Origin: a virus
Taxonomy: Duplodnaviria > Heunggongvirae > Uroviricota > Caudoviricetes
Virus record (IMG/VR): IMGVR_UViG_3300045988_142422
Strand: one strand, 5' to 3'
Length of the DNA: 64,000 nucleotides
Below, piece after piece: positions 1,882 to 21,743 of this stretch. A program made the translations under genes and the position numbers. The first letter of the stretch is position 1, and each line of letters begins with the position of its first letter. The notes under the pieces were generated by a model. It was not told the origin of the DNA and ran no database searches. It saw only the letters and a program-made list of their open reading frames with translations.

Positions 1882-4800
1882 ATGTGGTACAGGGAAGGTA
1901 CTATCACATTTACACAGGGTAGCAATACTCTGGTTGGGGCAGGGACAGCCTGGAACGTAACAGCTAATGGTGTGTTGCCGGGGATGATCGTCATTGGCCC
2001 CGACAATAAGCTGTATGAGATCAAGCGCGTAACCAGTGATACGAACATTGTTCTCTCAGAACCTTATACCGGCGAAACTCAGTCTGAAGTTCCGTGCCGA
2101 ATCATTACGACCTATGAAGGCGACTTAACACAGTTTAGCGCGCGCTTTACAGCACTAATGTCGCGTATGTCGGCTGATTCCAAGTCTATGCGCAGTTGGT
2201 TGACTGCTCTGGATGAGGTGACAATCGAGCGTGAAGACGGTACAGAAGTAACCGTTAAGCCGCTAATGCAGATCGTCAACGAGCACAACGAAAACGTTGA
2301 GTGGTATAAAAATAACACTGACGCGATTGATGCTGCTGGCGACAAAGCTCGTGAGGCGGCGGCCAGTGCTGCCGCAGCAGCAGAAAGCGCCAATACCGCT
2401 GGAGAAAAAGCCTCTCAAGCGTCTCAAAGTGTATCCGCTGCGGCATCCTCACAAAGTGCCGCAAGTGCGAGTGCAACTGCTGCGAAAAAATCTGAAACGA
2501 ATGCCGCAGCGTCACAACAATCAGCAGCCACTTCTGCATCCACCGCGACCACGAAAGCGTCAGAAGCTGCCACCTCAGCCCGGGATGCGGCGGCCTCAAA
2601 AGAGGCAGCGAAATCATCAGAAACGAACGCATCCTTGAGCGCCAGTAGCGCAGCTTCCTCGGCAACGGCGGCAGGAAATTCCGCGAAGGCGGCAAAAACG
2701 TCCGAGACGAACGCCAGGTCTTCTGAGACGGCAGCGGGACAGAGCGCCTCAGCTGCGGCAGGCTCAAAAACAGCGGCTGCGTCGTCTGCCAGTGCCGCGT
2801 CAACAAGTGCCGGGCAGGCCTCAGCCAGTGCCACCGCCGCCGGAAAATCGGCAGAAAGTGCCGCATCGTCTGCTTCAACAGCCACAACGAAGGCTGGCGA
2901 AGCCACTGAACAGGCCAGCGCAGCAGCGAGGTCTGCTTCCGCAGCGAAGACATCCGAAACGAACGCGAAAGCGTCGGAAACCAGCGCAGAATCCTCAAAA
3001 ACGGCTGCCGCATCGTCCGCCAGTTCGGCGGCGTCATCGGCATCATCTGCGTCTGCTTCAAAAGATGAGGCGACCAGACAGGCGTCAGCAGCGAAGGGCA
3101 GTGCCACGACGGCATCCACGAAAGCAACAGAGGCGGCAGGCAGTGCGACGGCAGCATCTCAGAGCAAAACTGCTGCTGAATCCGCTGCGACCCGTGCGGA
3201 AGCTGCTGCTGATCGTGCTGAAGAGATTGCCGGTGCAGTTGCGATGGAAGACGCAAGCCTTACAACTAAAGGTGTTGTGAAACTTAGCAGTGCTGTCGAC
3301 AGCACCAGTGAATCGCTGGCCGCAACGCCAAAAGCAGTTAAAGCAGCCAATGACAATGCGAATAGCAGGGTGCCATCTAACCGAAAAGTTAACGGTAAAG
3401 CACTGACTGCGGATATCACATTAACGCCGAAAGATATTGGTACTTTAAATTCAGTAACGATGTCTTTCTCTGGCGGGGCAGGGTGGTTCAAACTGGCTAC
3501 GGTTACCATGCCACAAGCGAGTTCCATCGTTTACATCGCATTGATTGGTGGCGCTGGTTACAACGTCGGCTCCCCACATCAGGCAGGTATTTCAGAACTG
3601 GTTCTACGAGCAGGCAATGGAAACCCCAAAGGGATTACAGGTGCTTTGTGGAAGCGTACAGCTGTCGGATTAACGAATTTCGCCTGGATCAACACATCCG
3701 GCGATACATATGATATTTACGTTGAGATTGGCAATTATGCGACTCGTGTAAATATCCATTGGGATTGTACTGCAAATGCGACAGTTTCTATTTATACCTC
3801 GCCAACATATTCAGCGAGTAAGCCTTCCAGCGTTACCGATGGTGTTGTTTATACGATGTATAGCTCACATCAGAAACCTACACCATCAGATATTGGAGCA
3901 CTGCCAACAACCGGAGGAACAGTTTCAGGTCCGTTGTCTGTTACAGGTGGATTAACTGGTTCATTGAATGGTAATGCAAGTACAGCCACGAAATTGCAGA
4001 CGGCAAGATCTATCGGTGGAGTTGTTTTCGACGGTTCTGCAAATATTAACCTTCCAGGTGTAAACACTACGGGTAATCAGAACACCACTGGTAATGCTGC
4101 AACTGCTACAAAACTTCAGACGGCAAGAACTATCGGCGGCGTGAGCTTTGATGGTACTGCGAATATTAATTTGCCTGGTGTAAACACGGCAGGTAATCAG
4201 AATACAACGGGCAACGCGGCTACTGCTACGAAGTTGCAAACAGCGAGAAACATCAATGGTGTTAAGTTTGATGGCTCAGGCGATATCAACATTAATACAC
4301 TGGTATCTCGTGGCCGAGTTACGGCGTTAAGTGGCTCTACTCAGGGTACTGCTGGTATTCAAATGTATGAAGCATATAGCAATAATTACCCAACATCATT
4401 CGGCAATGTTCTGCATATGAAAGGGGCGAGTGCTGCTGGTGAGGGCGAGTTGCTTATTGGCTGGAGCGGAACGGATGGTGCTCATGCACCGGTTTATGTT
4501 CGTTCACGCCGTGATACTTCGACAGCGAATTGGTCTGGTTGGGCGCAGGTCTATACCACTGCTCATAAACCCACAGCGAAAGATGTTGGGGCTGCACAGA
4601 CGTTTAGCGCGTCATACAGTACTGGGGCTGGCAACTGGACTACCGCTGAATTTATCGCATGGCTGAAGGAGCGTGGTGCTTTCGCCGTACCGTATTGGAT
4701 GATGAAAGGCTCTTGGTCATATGCCGACAATAAAATTATCACTGATACAGGTGTCGGCAATATTTGTCTTGCTGGTGCGGTTATCGAGGTTTTAGGTCAC

Positions 4801-6270
4801 GAAGGCGCAATGACCATCCGAGTTACTACGCCTACAACGACAACCGGAGGTGGTATTGCCAGTGCTCAGTTCACCTATATTAATCACGGTAGCGCGTATG
4901 CCCCTGCCTGGCGCAGAGATTACAACACGACTCTCAAACCAACTGCGGCTGATGTTGGTGCGTTGCCGAGCGGTGGCGGCACACTTTCCGGCGCACTCAC
5001 ATTATCTATGGTTGCGCCGAGTGTTCAATTACGAGGGCAAGGTACTGATACCAGGCAGTACATCATGGCTTACAGAACCGATGGTGCTACATCATGGTAT
5101 GTAGGTAAGGCTAACAACGGCTCTGATAGCGCGATGCTCTGGAACTATACGGGGGCAAACGGAGTCGAGTTGGCTGCCGATGGCAATGTGCGCATTAATG
5201 CGAAGGGTAAGCAGTTTACGTTCGCAAACAACGGCAATTTGGGGCTTGTCGCTTCGTTGGATCAAAGTTCTGTTCCACAGGGCACTTACCATCAAGTTGC
5301 TATGAACTCTGGAACCAGAGGTGCTAAATCCTATCTTCGTAAGTTCAGGGGTGGGAACGCAGATACCGTCTGGCATGAAACCGTTCAAGACGGAAATTAC
5401 CGACTTGCTACTGGTGACACTGATTCTCAGGGTGAAATGTACCTTTCGACTTCGGGTTGGGTTCGTTTCCGTGGTGAAGTTGTTTCAGAATCGGCCAATG
5501 GTTTGCGAGCCGCATTCGGTAACTTCGGTTTCTTTATCCGAAATGATGGAACGAACACTTATTTCCTTTTGACAGCTTCAGGTGACAAGTACGGTTCTTG
5601 GAATGGTTTGCGGCCTCTGACTATCAACAATGTCAGTGGCGCAGTGTCAATGAGCAACGGACTAACTGTTGCTGGTGGACTTAATGTAACGAGCGGAAAC
5701 CTGAAAATCTCGACGTCCAGCACATCGTGGATCGACATGAGAGCAGGCGTAGCCCTTTCGAACTCTTCAGCTGTTTCGACGTCATCCGCTTCGGCGATAG
5801 TCCGTCAAGAACACGCCGATCGCCATTTCATTCTTGGCGGTTTGGGTAACTCGCAGTTCGGGATTTACATGATTAACAAATCTCGAACTGCGAACGGCAC
5901 TGACGCTGCCGCTTATCTCCAGAACGACGGCACTTGGGTTTGCGCAGGCAACGGTAGTTTTAATGACGTTTACATCCGTTCCGACCGCCGTAGTAAGCGC
6001 AATATTCGCAAAATTGAGCGGGCGCTCGACAAGCTGGAGCAGATCGAAGGTGTTCTCTACGAGATTCAGGTCTGTGGCCGTTATGAGCAGTCTGGTGGCC
6101 TCATCGCTCAGGATGTCCAGAATGTTCAGCCTGAACTGGTAACGGTCGACCATAACGATCAGTCAGGAGAGCCTCGTCTGCGTCTTAACTACAACGGCGT
6201 TATCGGCATGTTGGTTGAGGCTGTCAAAGAGCTGCGCGAGGAAGTGCGCGAACTGAAGGCAAAAATGTAA
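1882..6270 (+). CDS. Long (L-shaped-type) tail fibre protein with C-terminal intramolecular chaperone (peptidase S74-like) domain
   Basis: 1462 aa; long Ala/Ser/Thr-rich low-complexity tract; repeated NLPGVNTTGNQNTTGNAATATKLQTAR units; C-terminus SDRRSKRNIRKIERALDKLEQIEGVLYEI...LRLNYNGVIGMLVEAVKEL matches the autoproteolytic chaperone module of fibre/endosialidase proteins (from memory). Confidence 0.8.
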   Translation: MWYREGTITFTQGSNTLVGAGTAWNVTANGVLPGMIVIGPDNKLYEIKRVTSDTNIVLSEPYTGETQSEVPCRIITTYEGDLTQFSARFTALMSRMSADSKSMRSWLTALDEVTIEREDGTEVTVKPLMQIVNEHNENVEWYKNNTDAIDAAGDKAREAAASAAAAAESANTAGEKASQASQSVSAAASSQSAASASATAAKKSETNAAASQQSAATSASTATTKASEAATSARDAAASKEAAKSSETNASLSASSAASSATAAGNSAKAAKTSETNARSSETAAGQSASAAAGSKTAAASSASAASTSAGQASASATAAGKSAESAASSASTATTKAGEATEQASAAARSASAAKTSETNAKASETSAESSKTAAASSASSAASSASSASASKDEATRQASAAKGSATTASTKATEAAGSATAASQSKTAAESAATRAEAAADRAEEIAGAVAMEDASLTTKGVVKLSSAVDSTSESLAATPKAVKAANDNANSRVPSNRKVNGKALTADITLTPKDIGTLNSVTMSFSGGAGWFKLATVTMPQASSIVYIALIGGAGYNVGSPHQAGISELVLRAGNGNPKGITGALWKRTAVGLTNFAWINTSGDTYDIYVEIGNYATRVNIHWDCTANATVSIYTSPTYSASKPSSVTDGVVYTMYSSHQKPTPSDIGALPTTGGTVSGPLSVTGGLTGSLNGNASTATKLQTARSIGGVVFDGSANINLPGVNTTGNQNTTGNAATATKLQTARTIGGVSFDGTANINLPGVNTAGNQNTTGNAATATKLQTARNINGVKFDGSGDININTLVSRGRVTALSGSTQGTAGIQMYEAYSNNYPTSFGNVLHMKGASAAGEGELLIGWSGTDGAHAPVYVRSRRDTSTANWSGWAQVYTTAHKPTAKDVGAAQTFSASYSTGAGNWTTAEFIAWLKERGAFAVPYWMMKGSWSYADNKIITDTGVGNICLAGAVIEVLGHEGAMTIRVTTPTTTTGGGIASAQFTYINHGSAYAPAWRRDYNTTLKPTAADVGALPSGGGTLSGALTLSMVAPSVQLRGQGTDTRQYIMAYRTDGATSWYVGKANNGSDSAMLWNYTGANGVELAADGNVRINAKGKQFTFANNGNLGLVASLDQSSVPQGTYHQVAMNSGTRGAKSYLRKFRGGNADTVWHETVQDGNYRLATGDTDSQGEMYLSTSGWVRFRGEVVSESANGLRAAFGNFGFFIRNDGTNTYFLLTASGDKYGSWNGLRPLTINNVSGAVSMSNGLTVAGGLNVTSGNLKISTSSTSWIDMRAGVALSNSSAVSTSSASAIVRQEHADRHFILGGLGNSQFGIYMINKSRTANGTDAAAYLQNDGTWVCAGNGSFNDVYIRSDRRSKRNIRKIERALDKLEQIEGVLYEIQVCGRYEQSGGLIAQDVQNVQPELVTVDHNDQSGEPRLRLNYNGVIGMLVEAVKELREEVRELKAKM

Positions 6271-6279
6271 TCAAGGTGA

Positions 6280-7119
6280 ATGGTGAGGGGACACCCTCAC
6301 CAATTCAGGATATTCACATCAAAAAGGAGATTAGATGTGCCAATTGTCGGTGTTCCCGGTTGGATTGGGTCTTCGGCTGTCAGTGTGACAGGCCAGAGAT
6401 GGATGAGTGCGGCTCGAACGGCGGTGCAACTGCCAGCGGCTGGTTCAATGTCTCAAATGGCCGGGCGATCTAAAGAAGTTCAGTACAGCATCGGTGCGAA
6501 TCATAACTACAACAAAGACACACTGATCAACTATTTAAAATCCCAGGGGGCGACGCCAGTCGTTGTTACCATTACAGGGGATCTGGTGTCGTCCAGTAGC
6601 GGCGTGCCATGTTTAGATTTCCCGAGTTCACTTACCAACTCTTATATCAGCCTTGTAATCAACGCAGGTGTGACTGTCTATGGACGCGGTGGCAATGGTG
6701 GTAGTAACGCTGCCGGTGCTGCTGGTGGTAACGCAATTAATAATGGCATCGGTACACGCTTGCGTATTACGAATAATGGTGCAATCGCTGGAGGTGGTGG
6801 CGGCGGTGGCGGCGGTAACAGGGGTAAACTAATATTTGGTGGTGGCGGTGGTCGCCCATTCGGTGCTGGTGGGTCTTCCTCTCATATGAGTTCCGGTGCA
6901 ACTGCTGGTACTATTTCCGCTCCTGGTAAAGGATCTGTTGGTGAGGGGTCTCTTAGTGCATATACAGGCGGTTCGGGTGGTAATGTCGGTGCTGCTGGAG
7001 GAAGATGTAATACTCAAGGTAACGGTACAGAATATAACGGCGGAGCAGCTGGTAAAGCTGTTACTGGTAATGCTCCAACTTGGACTAAAGTTGGGGCAAT
7101 TTACGGCGCTCATGTGTAA
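6280..7119 (+). CDS. Glycine-rich protein of unknown function (possible fibre-associated protein)
   Basis: ORF directly after fibre gene; poly-Gly tracts GGGGGGGGGNRGKLIFGGGGGRPFGAGG; alternative GTG start at 6337 preceded by AAGGAGA. Confidence 0.45.
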   Translation: MVRGHPHQFRIFTSKRRLDVPIVGVPGWIGSSAVSVTGQRWMSAARTAVQLPAAGSMSQMAGRSKEVQYSIGANHNYNKDTLINYLKSQGATPVVVTITGDLVSSSSGVPCLDFPSSLTNSYISLVINAGVTVYGRGGNGGSNAAGAAGGNAINNGIGTRLRITNNGAIAGGGGGGGGGNRGKLIFGGGGGRPFGAGGSSSHMSSGATAGTISAPGKGSVGEGSLSAYTGGSGGNVGAAGGRCNTQGNGTEYNGGAAGKAVTGNAPTWTKVGAIYGAHV

Positions 7120-19563: not shown

Positions 19564-19638
19564 GATGGTGTAGCTCAGCGGTAGAGCAGTTGGCTGTTAA
19601 CCAACTGGTCGGTGGTTCGAATCCACCCACCATCGCCA
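19564..19638 (+). tRNA. tRNA-Asn (anticodon GTT)
   Basis: Cloverleaf by eye: acceptor GATGGTG/CACCATC, D-arm GCTC/GAGC, anticodon loop CTGTTAA, T-loop GGTTCGAATCC, 3' GCCA. Confidence 0.85.
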
Positions 19639-19640
19639 AT

Positions 19641-19716
19641 GCCGGTTTAGCTCAGTTGGTAGAGCGCCTGCCTTGTAAGCAGGATGTCAGCGGTTCGAGT
19701 CCGTTAACCGGCACCA
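19641..19716 (+). tRNA. tRNA-Thr (anticodon TGT)
   Basis: Acceptor GCCGGTT/AACCGGC, anticodon loop CTTGTAA, T-loop TTCGAGT, 3' ACCA; 2 nt after tRNA-Asn. Confidence 0.85.
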
Positions 19717-19786
19717 ATACAACGATAAGATCATTACGGTTAATCGTCGTTCATGTGCACAATGACTGGTCGAAAGGTAGTGATCT

Positions 19787-19938
19787 TACCGTTGTGGTGG
19801 ATTCGCAGACTGATGCGATAGCTTTCTTGGATGTTAGGGAAATGCGGCCGCAAATCTTCCCTTTCGCGAGCGGTGATCGTCCGTAGTCCTAATTGGCTGC
19901 ACCGTATGCCGGAGATTCAGTACCGGCCACCACAACGG
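19787..19938. other. Long-range inverted repeat (12 bp CCGTTGTGGTGG / CCACCACAACGG) enclosing about 126 nt
   Basis: Arms 19787-19800 and 19927-19938; second arm ends 2 nt before tRNA-Ser. Confidence 0.5.
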
Positions 19939-19940
19939 CC

Positions 19941-20027
19941 GGAGAGTAGGGAGCATGGTGCTCAAGCGGTCTTGAAAACCGTCCCATTGCGCAAGCGATG
20001 ATGGTTCGATTCCATTACTCTCCGCCA
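19941..20027 (+). tRNA. tRNA-Ser (anticodon TGA), long variable arm
   Basis: Acceptor GGAGAGT/ACTCTCC, anticodon loop CTTGAAA, long variable arm, T-loop GGTTCGATTCC, 3' GCCA; D-arm atypical. Confidence 0.7.
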
Positions 20028-20029
20028 GA

Positions 20030-20107
20030 CACAGCGTTGAGCGGTTTGGCCTTTTAATCAACTCGATTAAGACTCCGCTAACATAAACCAGACCGCTCAA
20101 CGCTGTG
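20030..20107. other. Long hairpin: 16-bp perfect inverted repeat CACAGCGTTGAGCGGT with about 46-nt loop, directly after tRNA-Ser
   Basis: Arms 20030-20045 and 20092-20107; shares CACARCGTTGAG core with the 19176 hairpin. Confidence 0.6.
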
Positions 20108-20181
20108 ATAGACAATTACGGCAGACGTTCTTAACCATAGCTTGCTAACATCCTAGCAACACTTTTTTAAGCGCAAAATCC

Positions 20182-20205
20182 AAAGGGGCTTCGGCCCCTT
20201 TTTTG
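20182..20205. terminator. Bidirectional rho-independent terminator
   Basis: GGGGC-TTCG-GCCCC stem-loop flanked by A-run and T-run (AAAGGGGCTTCGGCCCCTTTTTTG). Confidence 0.8.
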
Positions 20206-21114
20206 TTAATGATTGCCTAGATATGATTTTAGTTCTTCTTTAATGATTAGTGAGTATTCTAAAATATCACTTAGTAAAAATTTTGCTCTGTTAAAATACC
20301 CACCAAAAGAACCTAAAATTTCAGATGGTCTTTCTAAGAGCATCACAATATCATCTTCTTGCACTTTAGTAATGTAACTTCTAACAGCTTTTTCTCCAAT
20401 AACTCTTTTCTTACCGTTTATTTCAGATTCATCTAAAACCTTATTTATAAATTTTTCTGTATCATTGAATCGTCCACTATTGTGTACTATTGTATGTCTT
20501 AGTAGTTCAATTAGCTTGATGTTAAAGCGATAGTTTTTGCCAATCTTGTTGTTTGTTTCTATCTCTTTGAAGCCAGGTATTTTATTTCTGAAAATTTTAG
20601 TTATTTTTTTCGATGGGTTACTTTTTGCTTTTAATAATCTGTAATAAACTTCCCTTTTCCCAATTTCATCATCTTCAACCTTACCAAAATCACTTGAGGA
20701 CCATAAATCATTTCGAACACATACAGTATAGACATATATTGCCTCAATATAGTCTTCCAGTAACTCATAGGCTTCAGTAATAACCCACTGATATTGTTTA
20801 TTTTTCAAAGTATTACACAATCTTATCTTTTCTTCTAAATCAATGGCGCTGTTACCTATCTCTAATGTTGAACCTGTATATGGGTTTGAACATAAATGGC
20901 GAGCTAACGTTGTGCCACACTTAATCTTAATAGTTTCATTAATATTAATAATAGTATCTGGATTCTGTGCATACTCCACTTCTTTAAGAAGACGTTTTAT
21001 ATTTTTCTTTGTTGTATCATTTATCTGATTTAAATAGTCAAAAAGTAAAGATATTTCTTCTCTAAATTCGTTGTATTTATTTTCAATCAAAGAATCAGAC
21101 AACTTACCAATCAT
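20206..21114 (-). CDS. AT-rich hypothetical protein with HEPN-like R-x4-H motif (candidate abortive-infection/defence protein)
   Basis: 302 aa, Lys/Asn/Ile-rich, markedly lower GC than flanks; motif LLRHTIVHNSG; isolated on minus strand between tRNA cluster and glutaredoxin. Confidence 0.3.
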   Translation of the reverse strand: MIGKLSDSLIENKYNEFREEISLLFDYLNQINDTTKKNIKRLLKEVEYAQNPDTIININETIKIKCGTTLARHLCSNPYTGSTLEIGNSAIDLEEKIRLCNTLKNKQYQWVITEAYELLEDYIEAIYVYTVCVRNDLWSSSDFGKVEDDEIGKREVYYRLLKAKSNPSKKITKIFRNKIPGFKEIETNNKIGKNYRFNIKLIELLRHTIVHNSGRFNDTEKFINKVLDESEINGKKRVIGEKAVRSYITKVQEDDIVMLLERPSEILGSFGGYFNRAKFLLSDILEYSLIIKEELKSYLGNH

Positions 21115-21287
21115 TAAAACCTCTATAAAATGTACATTTCAAGGCAATCCTTACTGTAATCTATTGTCGTAATCACTTCAATTGTTTACTAGTCAATCAA
21201 TAAGTTACTACATACTTATCAAAAAAATCTGTTTGTAGTATAGTCTGATATGTTCGAATCAATATTTATAAAGGTATTTGTTAAGTT

Positions 21288-21533
21288 ATGACGATCACTA
21301 TCTACGGACGAGATAACTGCTCATACTGCAAACGTGCGGTCGAGCTGGCGAAGCAACTAAAGGGACATGGCTACGGTGATTATGAGTACATCGACATCAC
21401 CACTGCCGGTATCGACAAGGAAAAACTAAGTGAAATTGTTGGTAAACCGGTAGAGACTATCCCCCAGGTGCTGATCGATGGCCAGCCGATTGGCGGATAC
21501 ACAGAACTGGCTGTATACGTCAGCACCCTCTGA
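21288..21533 (+). CDS. Glutaredoxin-like protein
   Basis: 81 aa; redox motif CSYC near N-terminus; size and pattern typical of Grx/NrdH. Confidence 0.7.
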   Translation: MTITIYGRDNCSYCKRAVELAKQLKGHGYGDYEYIDITTAGIDKEKLSEIVGKPVETIPQVLIDGQPIGGYTELAVYVSTL

Positions 21534-21540
21534 TTTTAAC

Positions 21541-21563
21541 GGCTCACAGGAGCCGTTTTTTAT
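21541..21563 (+). terminator. Rho-independent terminator
   Basis: CGGCTC-ACAG-GAGCCG followed by TTTTTTA. Confidence 0.7.
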
Positions 21564-21743
21564 TCCCACCAAACCACTCCTGTTTCCCTTAAAATTCAAA
21601 AAACAACGTCTAAATGATTCCATACCTACTATGTATGGAATCATTGCTGAAAATGAGTTACTTTTACTCTTGATCCTATAAGAATCTATGCCTAATATAC
21701 TGTTTACTTATACAGTGCATCGGCGTAACTCGGTGATTGTCAT

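Follow-up and report, generated by a model that had tools for sequence, protein, structure and literature searches.

Abi_2 proteins (AbiD, AbiD1 and AbiF) are AT-rich, about 350 aa long and partner-less. In phage 'morons' and in the defence hotspots that temperate phages and their satellites carry, autonomous transcription units with deviant GC content are present in some elements, absent from others and swapped as cargo between fixed conserved flanks. The P2/P4 hotspots are an example of such defence hotspots (PMC13586616). [quoted passage not shown] HEPN enzymes are also active in RNA processing, and some HEPN domains are non-catalytic binders; the non-catalytic domains described have lost R-x4-6-H (PMC3710099). 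HEC-08, a DUF3644-type HEPN defence protein, works alone, requires the histidine of its R-x4-6-H motif and has a predicted structure that matches SO_3166 (5YEP) (bioRxiv 10.1101/2024.01.29.577857).

Here we describe a 302-aa open reading frame (ORF) in a 64-kb window, the whole stretch of viral DNA that was analysed. We assign a probability of roughly 0.55 to the reading that this ORF encodes a HEPN-like RNase that works alone in abortive infection or exclusion, a proposal that draws on sequence conservation, a predicted structure and genomic context. Such a gene is known in kind, as there is ample precedent for standalone HEPN Abi proteins as well as for cargo hotspots.

The region is 98-99% identical to non-mobilizable E. 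coli plasmids of ~105-120 kb and to 'Escherichia phage CMS-2020a'; phage Cyrano and IncFIB phage-like plasmids of Klebsiella and Citrobacter are collinear with it. The region carries a phage-plasmid gene set (ligase, tRNAs, grxA, tyrosine integrase, HTH repressor and CobT/VWA genes), and the element is an E. coli phage-plasmid of the SSU5/pHCM2 type. The integrase-repressor backbone was found in 252 of 5,426 complete E. coli genomes, with every copy plasmid-borne. The ORF is present in 30 of these 252 backbone-bearing genomes and thus missing from about 88% of the elements. All 30 copies are located on these phage-plasmids and none is chromosomal; 19 have at least 99% nucleotide identity and 11 about 70%.

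Between the plus-strand tRNA genes and the plus-strand grxA gene, the 302-aa ORF is the only gene on the minus strand (Table 1). Its GC content of 29.2%, versus a mean of 46.0% for the window, is lower than that of any other 909-bp stretch in the 64 kb (z = -4.5). The ORF has a GC3 of 0.23, versus 0.39-0.57 for its neighbours (ligase, grxA, int, repressor and cobT-like genes), and the most frequent residues of the protein are Ile, Lys, Leu, Glu and Asn. An initial reading of the DNA without database searches (hereafter the sequence-only reading) had described the ORF as lower in GC than its flanking genes, rich in Lys, Asn and Ile and isolated on the minus strand, and our measurements agree with it on all three counts.

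Table 1. Coordinates of the cargo cassette, its flanks and the sequence elements discussed in the text.
Feature	Position	Strand	Remarks
tRNA-Asn / tRNA-Thr / tRNA-Ser cluster	19564..20027	+	left backbone flank of the hotspot
tRNA-Asn	19564-19638	+	
tRNA-Thr	19641-19716	+	
tRNA-Ser	19941-20027	+	
GC-rich hairpin terminator	20182..20201	.	conserved backbone; terminates the tRNA cluster on the + strand
Cargo cassette (ORF and 173-bp AT-rich upstream region)	20206..21287	-	1,082 bp
HEPN-like 302-aa ORF	20206..21114	-	909 bp including the stop codon; PHROG 35492; family of 449 clusters
R-x4-H codons (R206-H207-T208-I209-V210-H211)	20482..20499	-	C-terminal end of helix 195-212
Codons N105-Y127 (N-x-Q-x2-W...E117-x2-E120...Y127 block)	20734..20802	-	inside long helix 93-133
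Invariant E117 codon	20764-20766	-	
Variable N-terminal part (residues 2-92)	20839..21111	-	helix 2-50 and beta-hairpin 69-91 (model)
Shine-Dalgarno GAGG	21120..21123	-	5 nt before the ATG; read from sequence
Promoter-like TTGAAG-N17-TACAGT	21153..21181	-	by eye; 8/12 consensus matches, weak
grxA (glutaredoxin)	21288..21533	+	right backbone flank of the hotspot

Comparison with elements that carry other cargo places the boundaries of the exchanged DNA precisely. On the left, elements with an AbiG pair or Gp49 are 97-99% identical to the window up to a homology break at 20202-20205, and on the right, identity with other-cargo elements returns exactly at 21288, the ATG of grxA. Given these sharp breaks, the swapped unit is 20206-21287. 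GC content across this unit is 0.22-0.34 and rises steeply at either end, and the 173 bp of DNA upstream of the ORF have 22-29% GC. In the same slot, the sister plasmid pUTAK-6-1 encodes an AbiGi-family abortive-infection gene and a 403-aa partner on the same strand, and the alternative cargo of other elements in the tRNA-grxA slot includes a DUF6645 protein, a small Gp49-family gene and phoH. The AbiG (AbiGi/AbiGii) cassette is an unrelated two-gene system, but it fills exactly this slot, from the tRNA terminator to grxA, on the identical strand, and so the two cassettes are functionally interchangeable cargo. A neighbouring variable slot holds YafO-type toxin modules in relatives.

The cassette shows the features of morons and hotspot cargo: presence or absence at a fixed site, sharp breaks, a GC content 17 points lower, and Shine-Dalgarno and promoter-like blocks. 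As judged from these element comparisons, the accessory hotspot holds a single-gene island that has been exchanged horizontally. Unlike P2/P4-type hotspots, this slot lies in an SSU5-type phage-plasmid and the cargo comes from an uncharacterised family. Accessory insertions in SSU5-group elements were reported 'near tRNA loci' in a survey (bioRxiv 10.1101/2025.09.12.675607), and the sequence-only reading had likewise seen an insertion hotspot next to the tRNA genes. The exchangeable cargo slot is borne out by the comparisons, but the tRNA genes were rejected as an integration target, because homology runs past them through the terminator and loci of the family rarely have tRNAs; the actual boundaries are the terminator and the grxA ATG.

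The hairpin between the tRNA genes and the ORF (8-bp stem, 5 GC, UUCG loop, about -15 kcal/mol) lies 4 nt beyond the stop codon of the ORF. It had been described as a strong bidirectional terminator bounding the island. A terminator scan called it on the plus strand only, where it has a TTTTTTG tail, whereas the minus-strand tail is a weaker, interrupted T-tract (TTTGGATTTTG), so that the description holds in part; the hairpin probably also stops the ORF transcript. Since it is shared with elements of different cargo, the terminator is part of the backbone and lies outside the island.

At the other end of the gene, the Shine-Dalgarno block (TAGAGGTTT) is kept in the divergent second E. coli allele (allele 2), as are both promoter-like hexamer blocks, despite ~30% divergence of the coding sequence. 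The promoter scan gave no call for TTGAAG-N17-TACAGT, which fell under the threshold of the scanner; the block may nevertheless be the ORF's own weak promoter. We detected no second ORF of at least 50 aa in the upstream region of the cassette, no tandem repeats in 19900-21700 and no Rfam match in the cassette. Two pairs of inverted repeats (20207-20225/21135-21153 and 20239-20260/21097-21118) were considered as cassette ends and rejected as chance-level: by our estimate, 1 kb of DNA with 29% GC should contain 16-of-19 matches a few times by chance.

Searches with the single 302-aa sequence returned no match in Pfam, NCBIfam, PADLOC or the PDB sequences (in Pfam, no family at E <= 1), consistent with the earlier impression that no known family could be assigned. 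The protein matches PHROG 35492, whose function is not annotated, over its full length (E = 1.3e-210, residues 1-302 on profile positions 1-302). A text search of the literature with the protein accessions and the PHROG identifier found no mention. A match of residues 20-60 to PHROG 4452 'anti-restriction nuclease' (E 0.0027) was dismissed as a coiled-coil artefact in the N-terminal helix. Word-indexed homology searches, even with profiles, recovered 8-21 relatives, and the family was revealed by an exhaustive HMM search: among 1.84 billion representatives, the profile detected 449 clusters (counted at the 50% identity level) at E <= 0.001, including 156 at E <= 1e-30. The members are nearly all single proteins of 285-320 aa.

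These relatives are distributed over Proteobacteria, Campylobacterales, Bacteroidales, spirochaetes and Nitrospira. The genera represented include Lonsdalea, Undibacterium, Collimonas, Variovorax, Brachymonas and Pseudomonas; MAGs of Methylococcales, Desulfobacterota-type lineages, Campylobacterales, Bacteroidales, Treponema, Leptospirales and Nitrospira also carry members, as do six IMG/VR contigs. Bacterial genomes and MAGs supply most of the 449 clusters, and the genomic loci that we inspected lie on chromosomal contigs.

Three residues, E117, R206 and H211, are each invariant in the 151 full-length members, which are otherwise 15-40% identical; R206 and H211 are likewise found in 84/84 sequences of a smaller alignment. 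The sequence-only reading had noticed the R-x4-H motif (R206-x4-H211) in LLRHTIVHNSG. Composition-preserving shuffles of the protein contain R-x4-H in 18% of cases and R-x4-6-H in 45%, so the motif seen by eye alone is within chance, and it is its conservation in 151/151 members that makes it significant. Of the 151 members, 145 have H and 6 have N at position 207, and V210 is kept in 150. Conservation peaks at residues 101-130 and 201-215 and reaches the maximum of the family in the N105-Y127 block (N105 in 146, Q107 in 140, W110 in 148, E120 in 138 and Y127 in 147 of the 151). Together with W138, D142, E186, N189, V210 and G214, these five positions are conserved at 83-99% (126-150/151). At position 121, D is found in 82 members, K in 22 and R in 8, and thus the E-x3-[KR] form is in the minority.

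This pattern bears on the possibility that the product is a non-catalytic structural or regulatory protein, for instance a nucleic-acid-binding protein or a scaffold, in which the conserved residues serve binding or folding. Some HEPN domains are indeed non-catalytic binders, and the long helices predicted for the protein resemble the coiled-coil scaffolds that dominate its fold matches. But the non-catalytic HEPN domains described are without R-x4-6-H (PMC3710099), and Arg, His and Glu that stay invariant in 151 sequences of such low identity are typical of catalytic residues. We regard a non-catalytic protein as very improbable.

An AlphaFold2 model built from the 84-sequence alignment (pLDDT 94.4, pTM 0.90) starts with a 50-residue helix (2-50) and a beta-hairpin (69-91). 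A 41-residue helix (93-133) that contains E117 follows, then a helical insert (134-194) and a helix (195-212) with R206-H211 at its C-terminal end. After the motif come a loop (213-218) with the conserved G214 and a helix (219-229) within a helical stretch (219-245), and the C-terminal part consists of a small sheet (248-275) and a helix (276-300). Helix 93-133, the insert, helix 195-212, the loop and helix 219-229 would correspond to the H2-insert-H3-loop-H4 layout of HEPN domains.

Like the HEPN endoRNases (PMC3710099), the family combines an invariant R-x4-H with H or N directly after the Arg, a motif at the end of a helix leading into a loop, a helical insert between the helices, an invariant upstream acidic residue (E117, in helix 93-133 of the model) and a setting among defence genes and mobile elements. 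Unlike HEPN families, its members have ~300 aa and surround the core with a 50-residue N-terminal helix, two beta elements and a helix at the C-terminus; E-x3-[KR] is not the rule, and there is no significant profile or Foldseek link. Sub-threshold matches among the 84 members scanned include DUF3644 in three (best E 0.0065), HEPN_Apea (0.022), HEPN_RnaseLS (0.033), Csx1/Csm6 CARF+HEPN in two (0.0033) and Cas13d. These faint matches lean towards HEPN families, and none is significant.

Searches of Pfam, NCBIfam, PADLOC and the PDB with the single sequence, the consensus, the 84 members and full or core-only profiles provided no significant HEPN link, and Foldseek found none to any HEPN family. 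The family consensus and its core-only version gave only noise in Pfam, and the matches of the full and core-only profiles in the PDB were confined to CmlS and SNAP-25 noise. With hhalign, the probability of a match to RnlA or LsoA was about 0.1-0.3%, and the sole local alignment places the R-H-x3-H motifs on each other, which does not count as independent evidence. The remote-homology search by which the HEPN assignment was to be checked thus came out negative: the R-x4-H motif that the sequence-only reading had compared with HEPN RNases is present with other hallmarks of HEPN sequences, and a significant profile link was not found. On conservation and the model together, the 302-aa protein probably works like a HEPN RNase, and it is a likely but unproven HEPN homolog. 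The same residues could alternatively form a convergent Glu/Arg/His active site on a helical scaffold other than HEPN, that of another nuclease, a phosphodiesterase or a nucleotide-modifying enzyme engaged in conflict between elements; we consider this unlikely, although not negligible.

Among the described systems, the lactococcal Abi_2 proteins (PF07751) are similar in being standalone proteins of ~300-350 aa that are AT-rich, borne on mobile elements, free of an antitoxin partner and equipped with R-x4-6-H. Unlike them, the 302-aa protein has no Pfam Abi_2 match (E <= 1) and no match to a PADLOC Abi model, and Abi_2 is absent among the 25 most-hit families listed for the 84 members at E <= 0.1. 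By these profile comparisons it represents a family distinct from Abi_2, so that the resemblance to AbiD/AbiF-type proteins proposed at first does not extend to membership. HEC-08 is linked to the family through DUF3644, the Pfam HEPN family most often faintly matched by its members (3/84). HepT/MntA modules (HEPN-MNT, DUF86; HI0074, SO_3166, YutE) differ in that their HEPN proteins have ~135 aa and lie beside a nucleotidyltransferase antitoxin. A HEPN-MNT toxin-antitoxin pair was rejected in view of the length of 302 aa, the missing DUF86 match and the lack of a conserved neighbour in 29 loci. RnlA/LsoA (RNase LS) was rejected on the hhalign result and on the lack of a downstream antitoxin gene within the cassette, and a type III toxin-antitoxin system (ToxIN/AbiQ-like) on the lack of tandem repeats and of an Rfam match in the regions searched. 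As far as these comparisons reach, the ORF product is not a member of Abi_2, DUF86/HepT, RnlA/LsoA or any PADLOC system.

We then examined the surroundings of the relatives. At each of the 29 loci where the ORF is complete, the GC content of the gene is 3-31 points under that of its 4-kb flanks, and the AT-rich island is therefore a trait of the family. No neighbour is conserved between independent loci across these 29. In unrelated loci, the neighbours include tyrosine integrases (one with a 4-nt overlap), a Type IIG restriction-modification (RM) enzyme with a 4-nt overlap, PD-T7-5 (E 4e-120), an Old/GajA-like ATPase-TOPRIM protein, MADS components and PDC-S32, 5 nt upstream. WYL, HNH, FRG and DUF4365 proteins, an MTaX1-HNH gene with a methyltransferase, and an IS200/IS605 transposase also occur, and several loci of the family have housekeeping neighbours. 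A defence-like context, in the phage-plasmid and in unrelated bacteria, is supported, and it is from this context that we infer a role in defence. Neither the neighbours in the 29 loci nor the ORFs, repeats and Rfam scan of the cassette yielded an antitoxin or anything else that would restrain a potentially toxic RNase. A homolog of 38-39% identity is located in the equivalent region of plasmid p2 of Klebsiella strain Kp1604 (CP085480/OK644452). Curing of p2 increased phage burst and plasmid uptake, a phenotype of the whole plasmid that is not gene-specific (PMC8969562).

The nuclease or RNase could instead act for the phage-plasmid's own benefit, in host takeover, lytic RNA processing or counter-defence or as an addiction toxin. 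The gene does lie on a temperate phage-plasmid among early and accessory genes (ligase, tRNAs, grxA, int and repressor), all its E. coli copies are plasmid-borne, the neighbouring variable slot of relatives holds YafO-type toxin modules, and HEPN-type enzymes serve RNA processing too (PMC3710099). But most of the 449 clusters are from bacterial genomes and MAGs, the genomic loci inspected are chromosomal, the relatives there adjoin RM, PD-T7-5, Old/Gabija-like and MADS genes and not phage replication or lysis genes, and the gene is dispensable to the backbone, most elements lacking it. An addiction module, moreover, needs an antitoxin gene, a repeat array or a known RNA, and none was found. 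We judge a function for the element itself to be improbable.

The tRNA genes beside the ORF enter into a further alternative, in which a convergent alpha+beta nuclease would be an exclusion weapon targeting tRNA or mRNA, with a hypervariable N-terminal helix and hairpin that set which invader is the trigger and adjacent tRNA genes that buffer the lysogen or the phage-plasmid from collateral damage. Only 2 of 33 loci have tRNA genes within 6 kb, and adjacency to them is therefore not a family trait. The buffering link is disfavoured for this reason and because the tRNA cluster is backbone whatever the cargo, and we give this scheme little credence.

The two E. coli alleles encode proteins of 56.3% identity, whereas the flanking GrxA is 98.8% and the integrase 99.5% identical between elements with allele 1 and those with allele 2. 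The Citrobacter version is 42% and the Klebsiella version 39% identical, with GrxA at 72-79% there, and the GC content of all alleles is 29-32%. Divergence is uneven along the protein: residues 1-50 are 36% identical between the E. coli alleles versus 73-81% in the motif helices. Family-wide, conservation is lowest in the N-terminal part (0.24-0.29), and the N-terminal helix, the hairpin and segment 134-194 are variable both across the family and between the E. coli alleles. The variable N-terminal part is thus a candidate recognition or oligomerisation region.

The preferred reading, a standalone HEPN-like RNase of abortive infection or exclusion, entails a mechanism in which HEPN homology, RNase activity, an anti-phage role and a mode of activation are all proposed. 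The active site would consist of E117 on one long helix and R-[H/N]-x3-H (R206-H211) where a second helix ends, an arrangement that would be that of the metal-independent HEPN endoribonucleases. The gene would be a self-contained moron, antisense to its neighbours, with its own weak promoter and Shine-Dalgarno sequence and a terminator borrowed from the backbone. Cleavage of RNA would protect the lysogen, and hence the phage-plasmid, from other phages or incoming DNA. The scheme has no cognate antitoxin; the variable N-terminal helix and hairpin and the insert between the helices might form a sensing, autoinhibitory or dimerisation surface.

As delineated by profile searches, the family is widespread, unannotated and missed by current annotation and defence-finding resources. 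Because Pfam, NCBIfam and PADLOC are blind to it, current defence surveys of phage-plasmids and genomes would score such loci as empty. If single-gene exclusion of the HEPN type is correct, the family would be a compact and easily testable addition to the defence catalogue, and the tRNA-to-grxA slot of SSU5-type phage-plasmids would be a defence hotspot. SSU5-type phage-plasmids are common in clinical E. coli, Klebsiella, Shigella and Salmonella. The 56%-identical alleles in 99%-identical backbones would then also represent a natural allelic series for the evolution of specificity, with allelic variability concentrated away from the catalytic helices.

The stretch between the grxA terminator and the integrase gene (int) forms a second variable slot, which in the window holds no cargo (coordinates of this and the other features are collected in the table). 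Relatives including pGD31-F25 carry a YafO-family toxin gene together with a gene for a 202-aa partner there, and this pair is also present in Klebsiella and Citrobacter elements. In phage Cyrano, the same slot instead contains a gene for a 184-aa protein on the minus strand. The integrase gene is preceded, at a distance of about 100 nt, by a near-perfect palindrome with 16-nt arms (AATGATTCCATACCTA and TATGTATGGAATCATT), which is retained at ~91% across the elements of E. coli, Klebsiella, and Citrobacter and may represent an operator or a recombination site.

On the other side of the cassette, the composition of the tRNA cluster is polymorphic among relatives. Most of them encode tRNA-Tyr between tRNA-Asn and tRNA-Thr, and this gene is absent from the window. 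A 224-nt spacer containing a 24-nt inverted repeat separates tRNA-Thr from tRNA-Ser in the window; this spacer is missing from Cyrano and pQL57EC-2. The tRNA-Ser(tga) gene, assigned to Ser by ARAGORN, also matched the Rfam tRNA-Sec model at 46.6 bits (only slightly below the gathering score of 47), a similarity that arises from its long variable arm. Directly following this gene, and preceding the terminator hairpin, is a 20-nt inverted repeat (95% complementary arms, 38-nt spacer) that is part of the conserved backbone.

Features of the window and of compared loci
Feature	Sequence	Coordinates
Polymorphic part of tRNA cluster	Window	19639-19940
tRNA-Thr/tRNA-Ser spacer	Window	19717-19940
tRNA-Ser(tga)	Window	19940-20024
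20-nt inverted repeat	Window	20030-20049 / 20088-20107
Second variable slot	Window	21514-21610
grxA terminator	Window	21538-21557
Palindrome	Window	21613-21645
YafO-family toxin and partner	pGD31-F25 (L001)	5322-6350
Region of family homolog	Pseudomonas veronii plasmid NZ_CP142042.1 (L004)	4723-6717

In Pseudomonas veronii, an ICE-like plasmid carries a 28%-identical homolog of the ORF in its cargo region. This homolog is preceded by two unannotated genes in the same direction, encoding 214 and 125 aa, the second of which stops 14 nt ahead of the family gene. Possibly, the three genes constitute a local operon, an arrangement unseen at the other loci.

The locus of Collimonas sp. OK607 (L009/L028), which is also entered as an IMG/VR contig, is a compact integrative island with the order tRNA-Arg, integrase, family gene, 60-aa ORF, and PD-T7-5. 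Here the family gene comes first among the cargo, next to PD-T7-5, a validated single-gene defense system.

A few E. coli phage-plasmids carry truncated or frameshifted copies of the ORF. Shortened protein relatives comprise 172 aa (P0005) and 173 aa (P0006), and on plasmid CP012114.1 the match is split into three pieces that lack an annotated CDS. Such broken copies would fit a gene that is costly or toxic and is inactivated from time to time.
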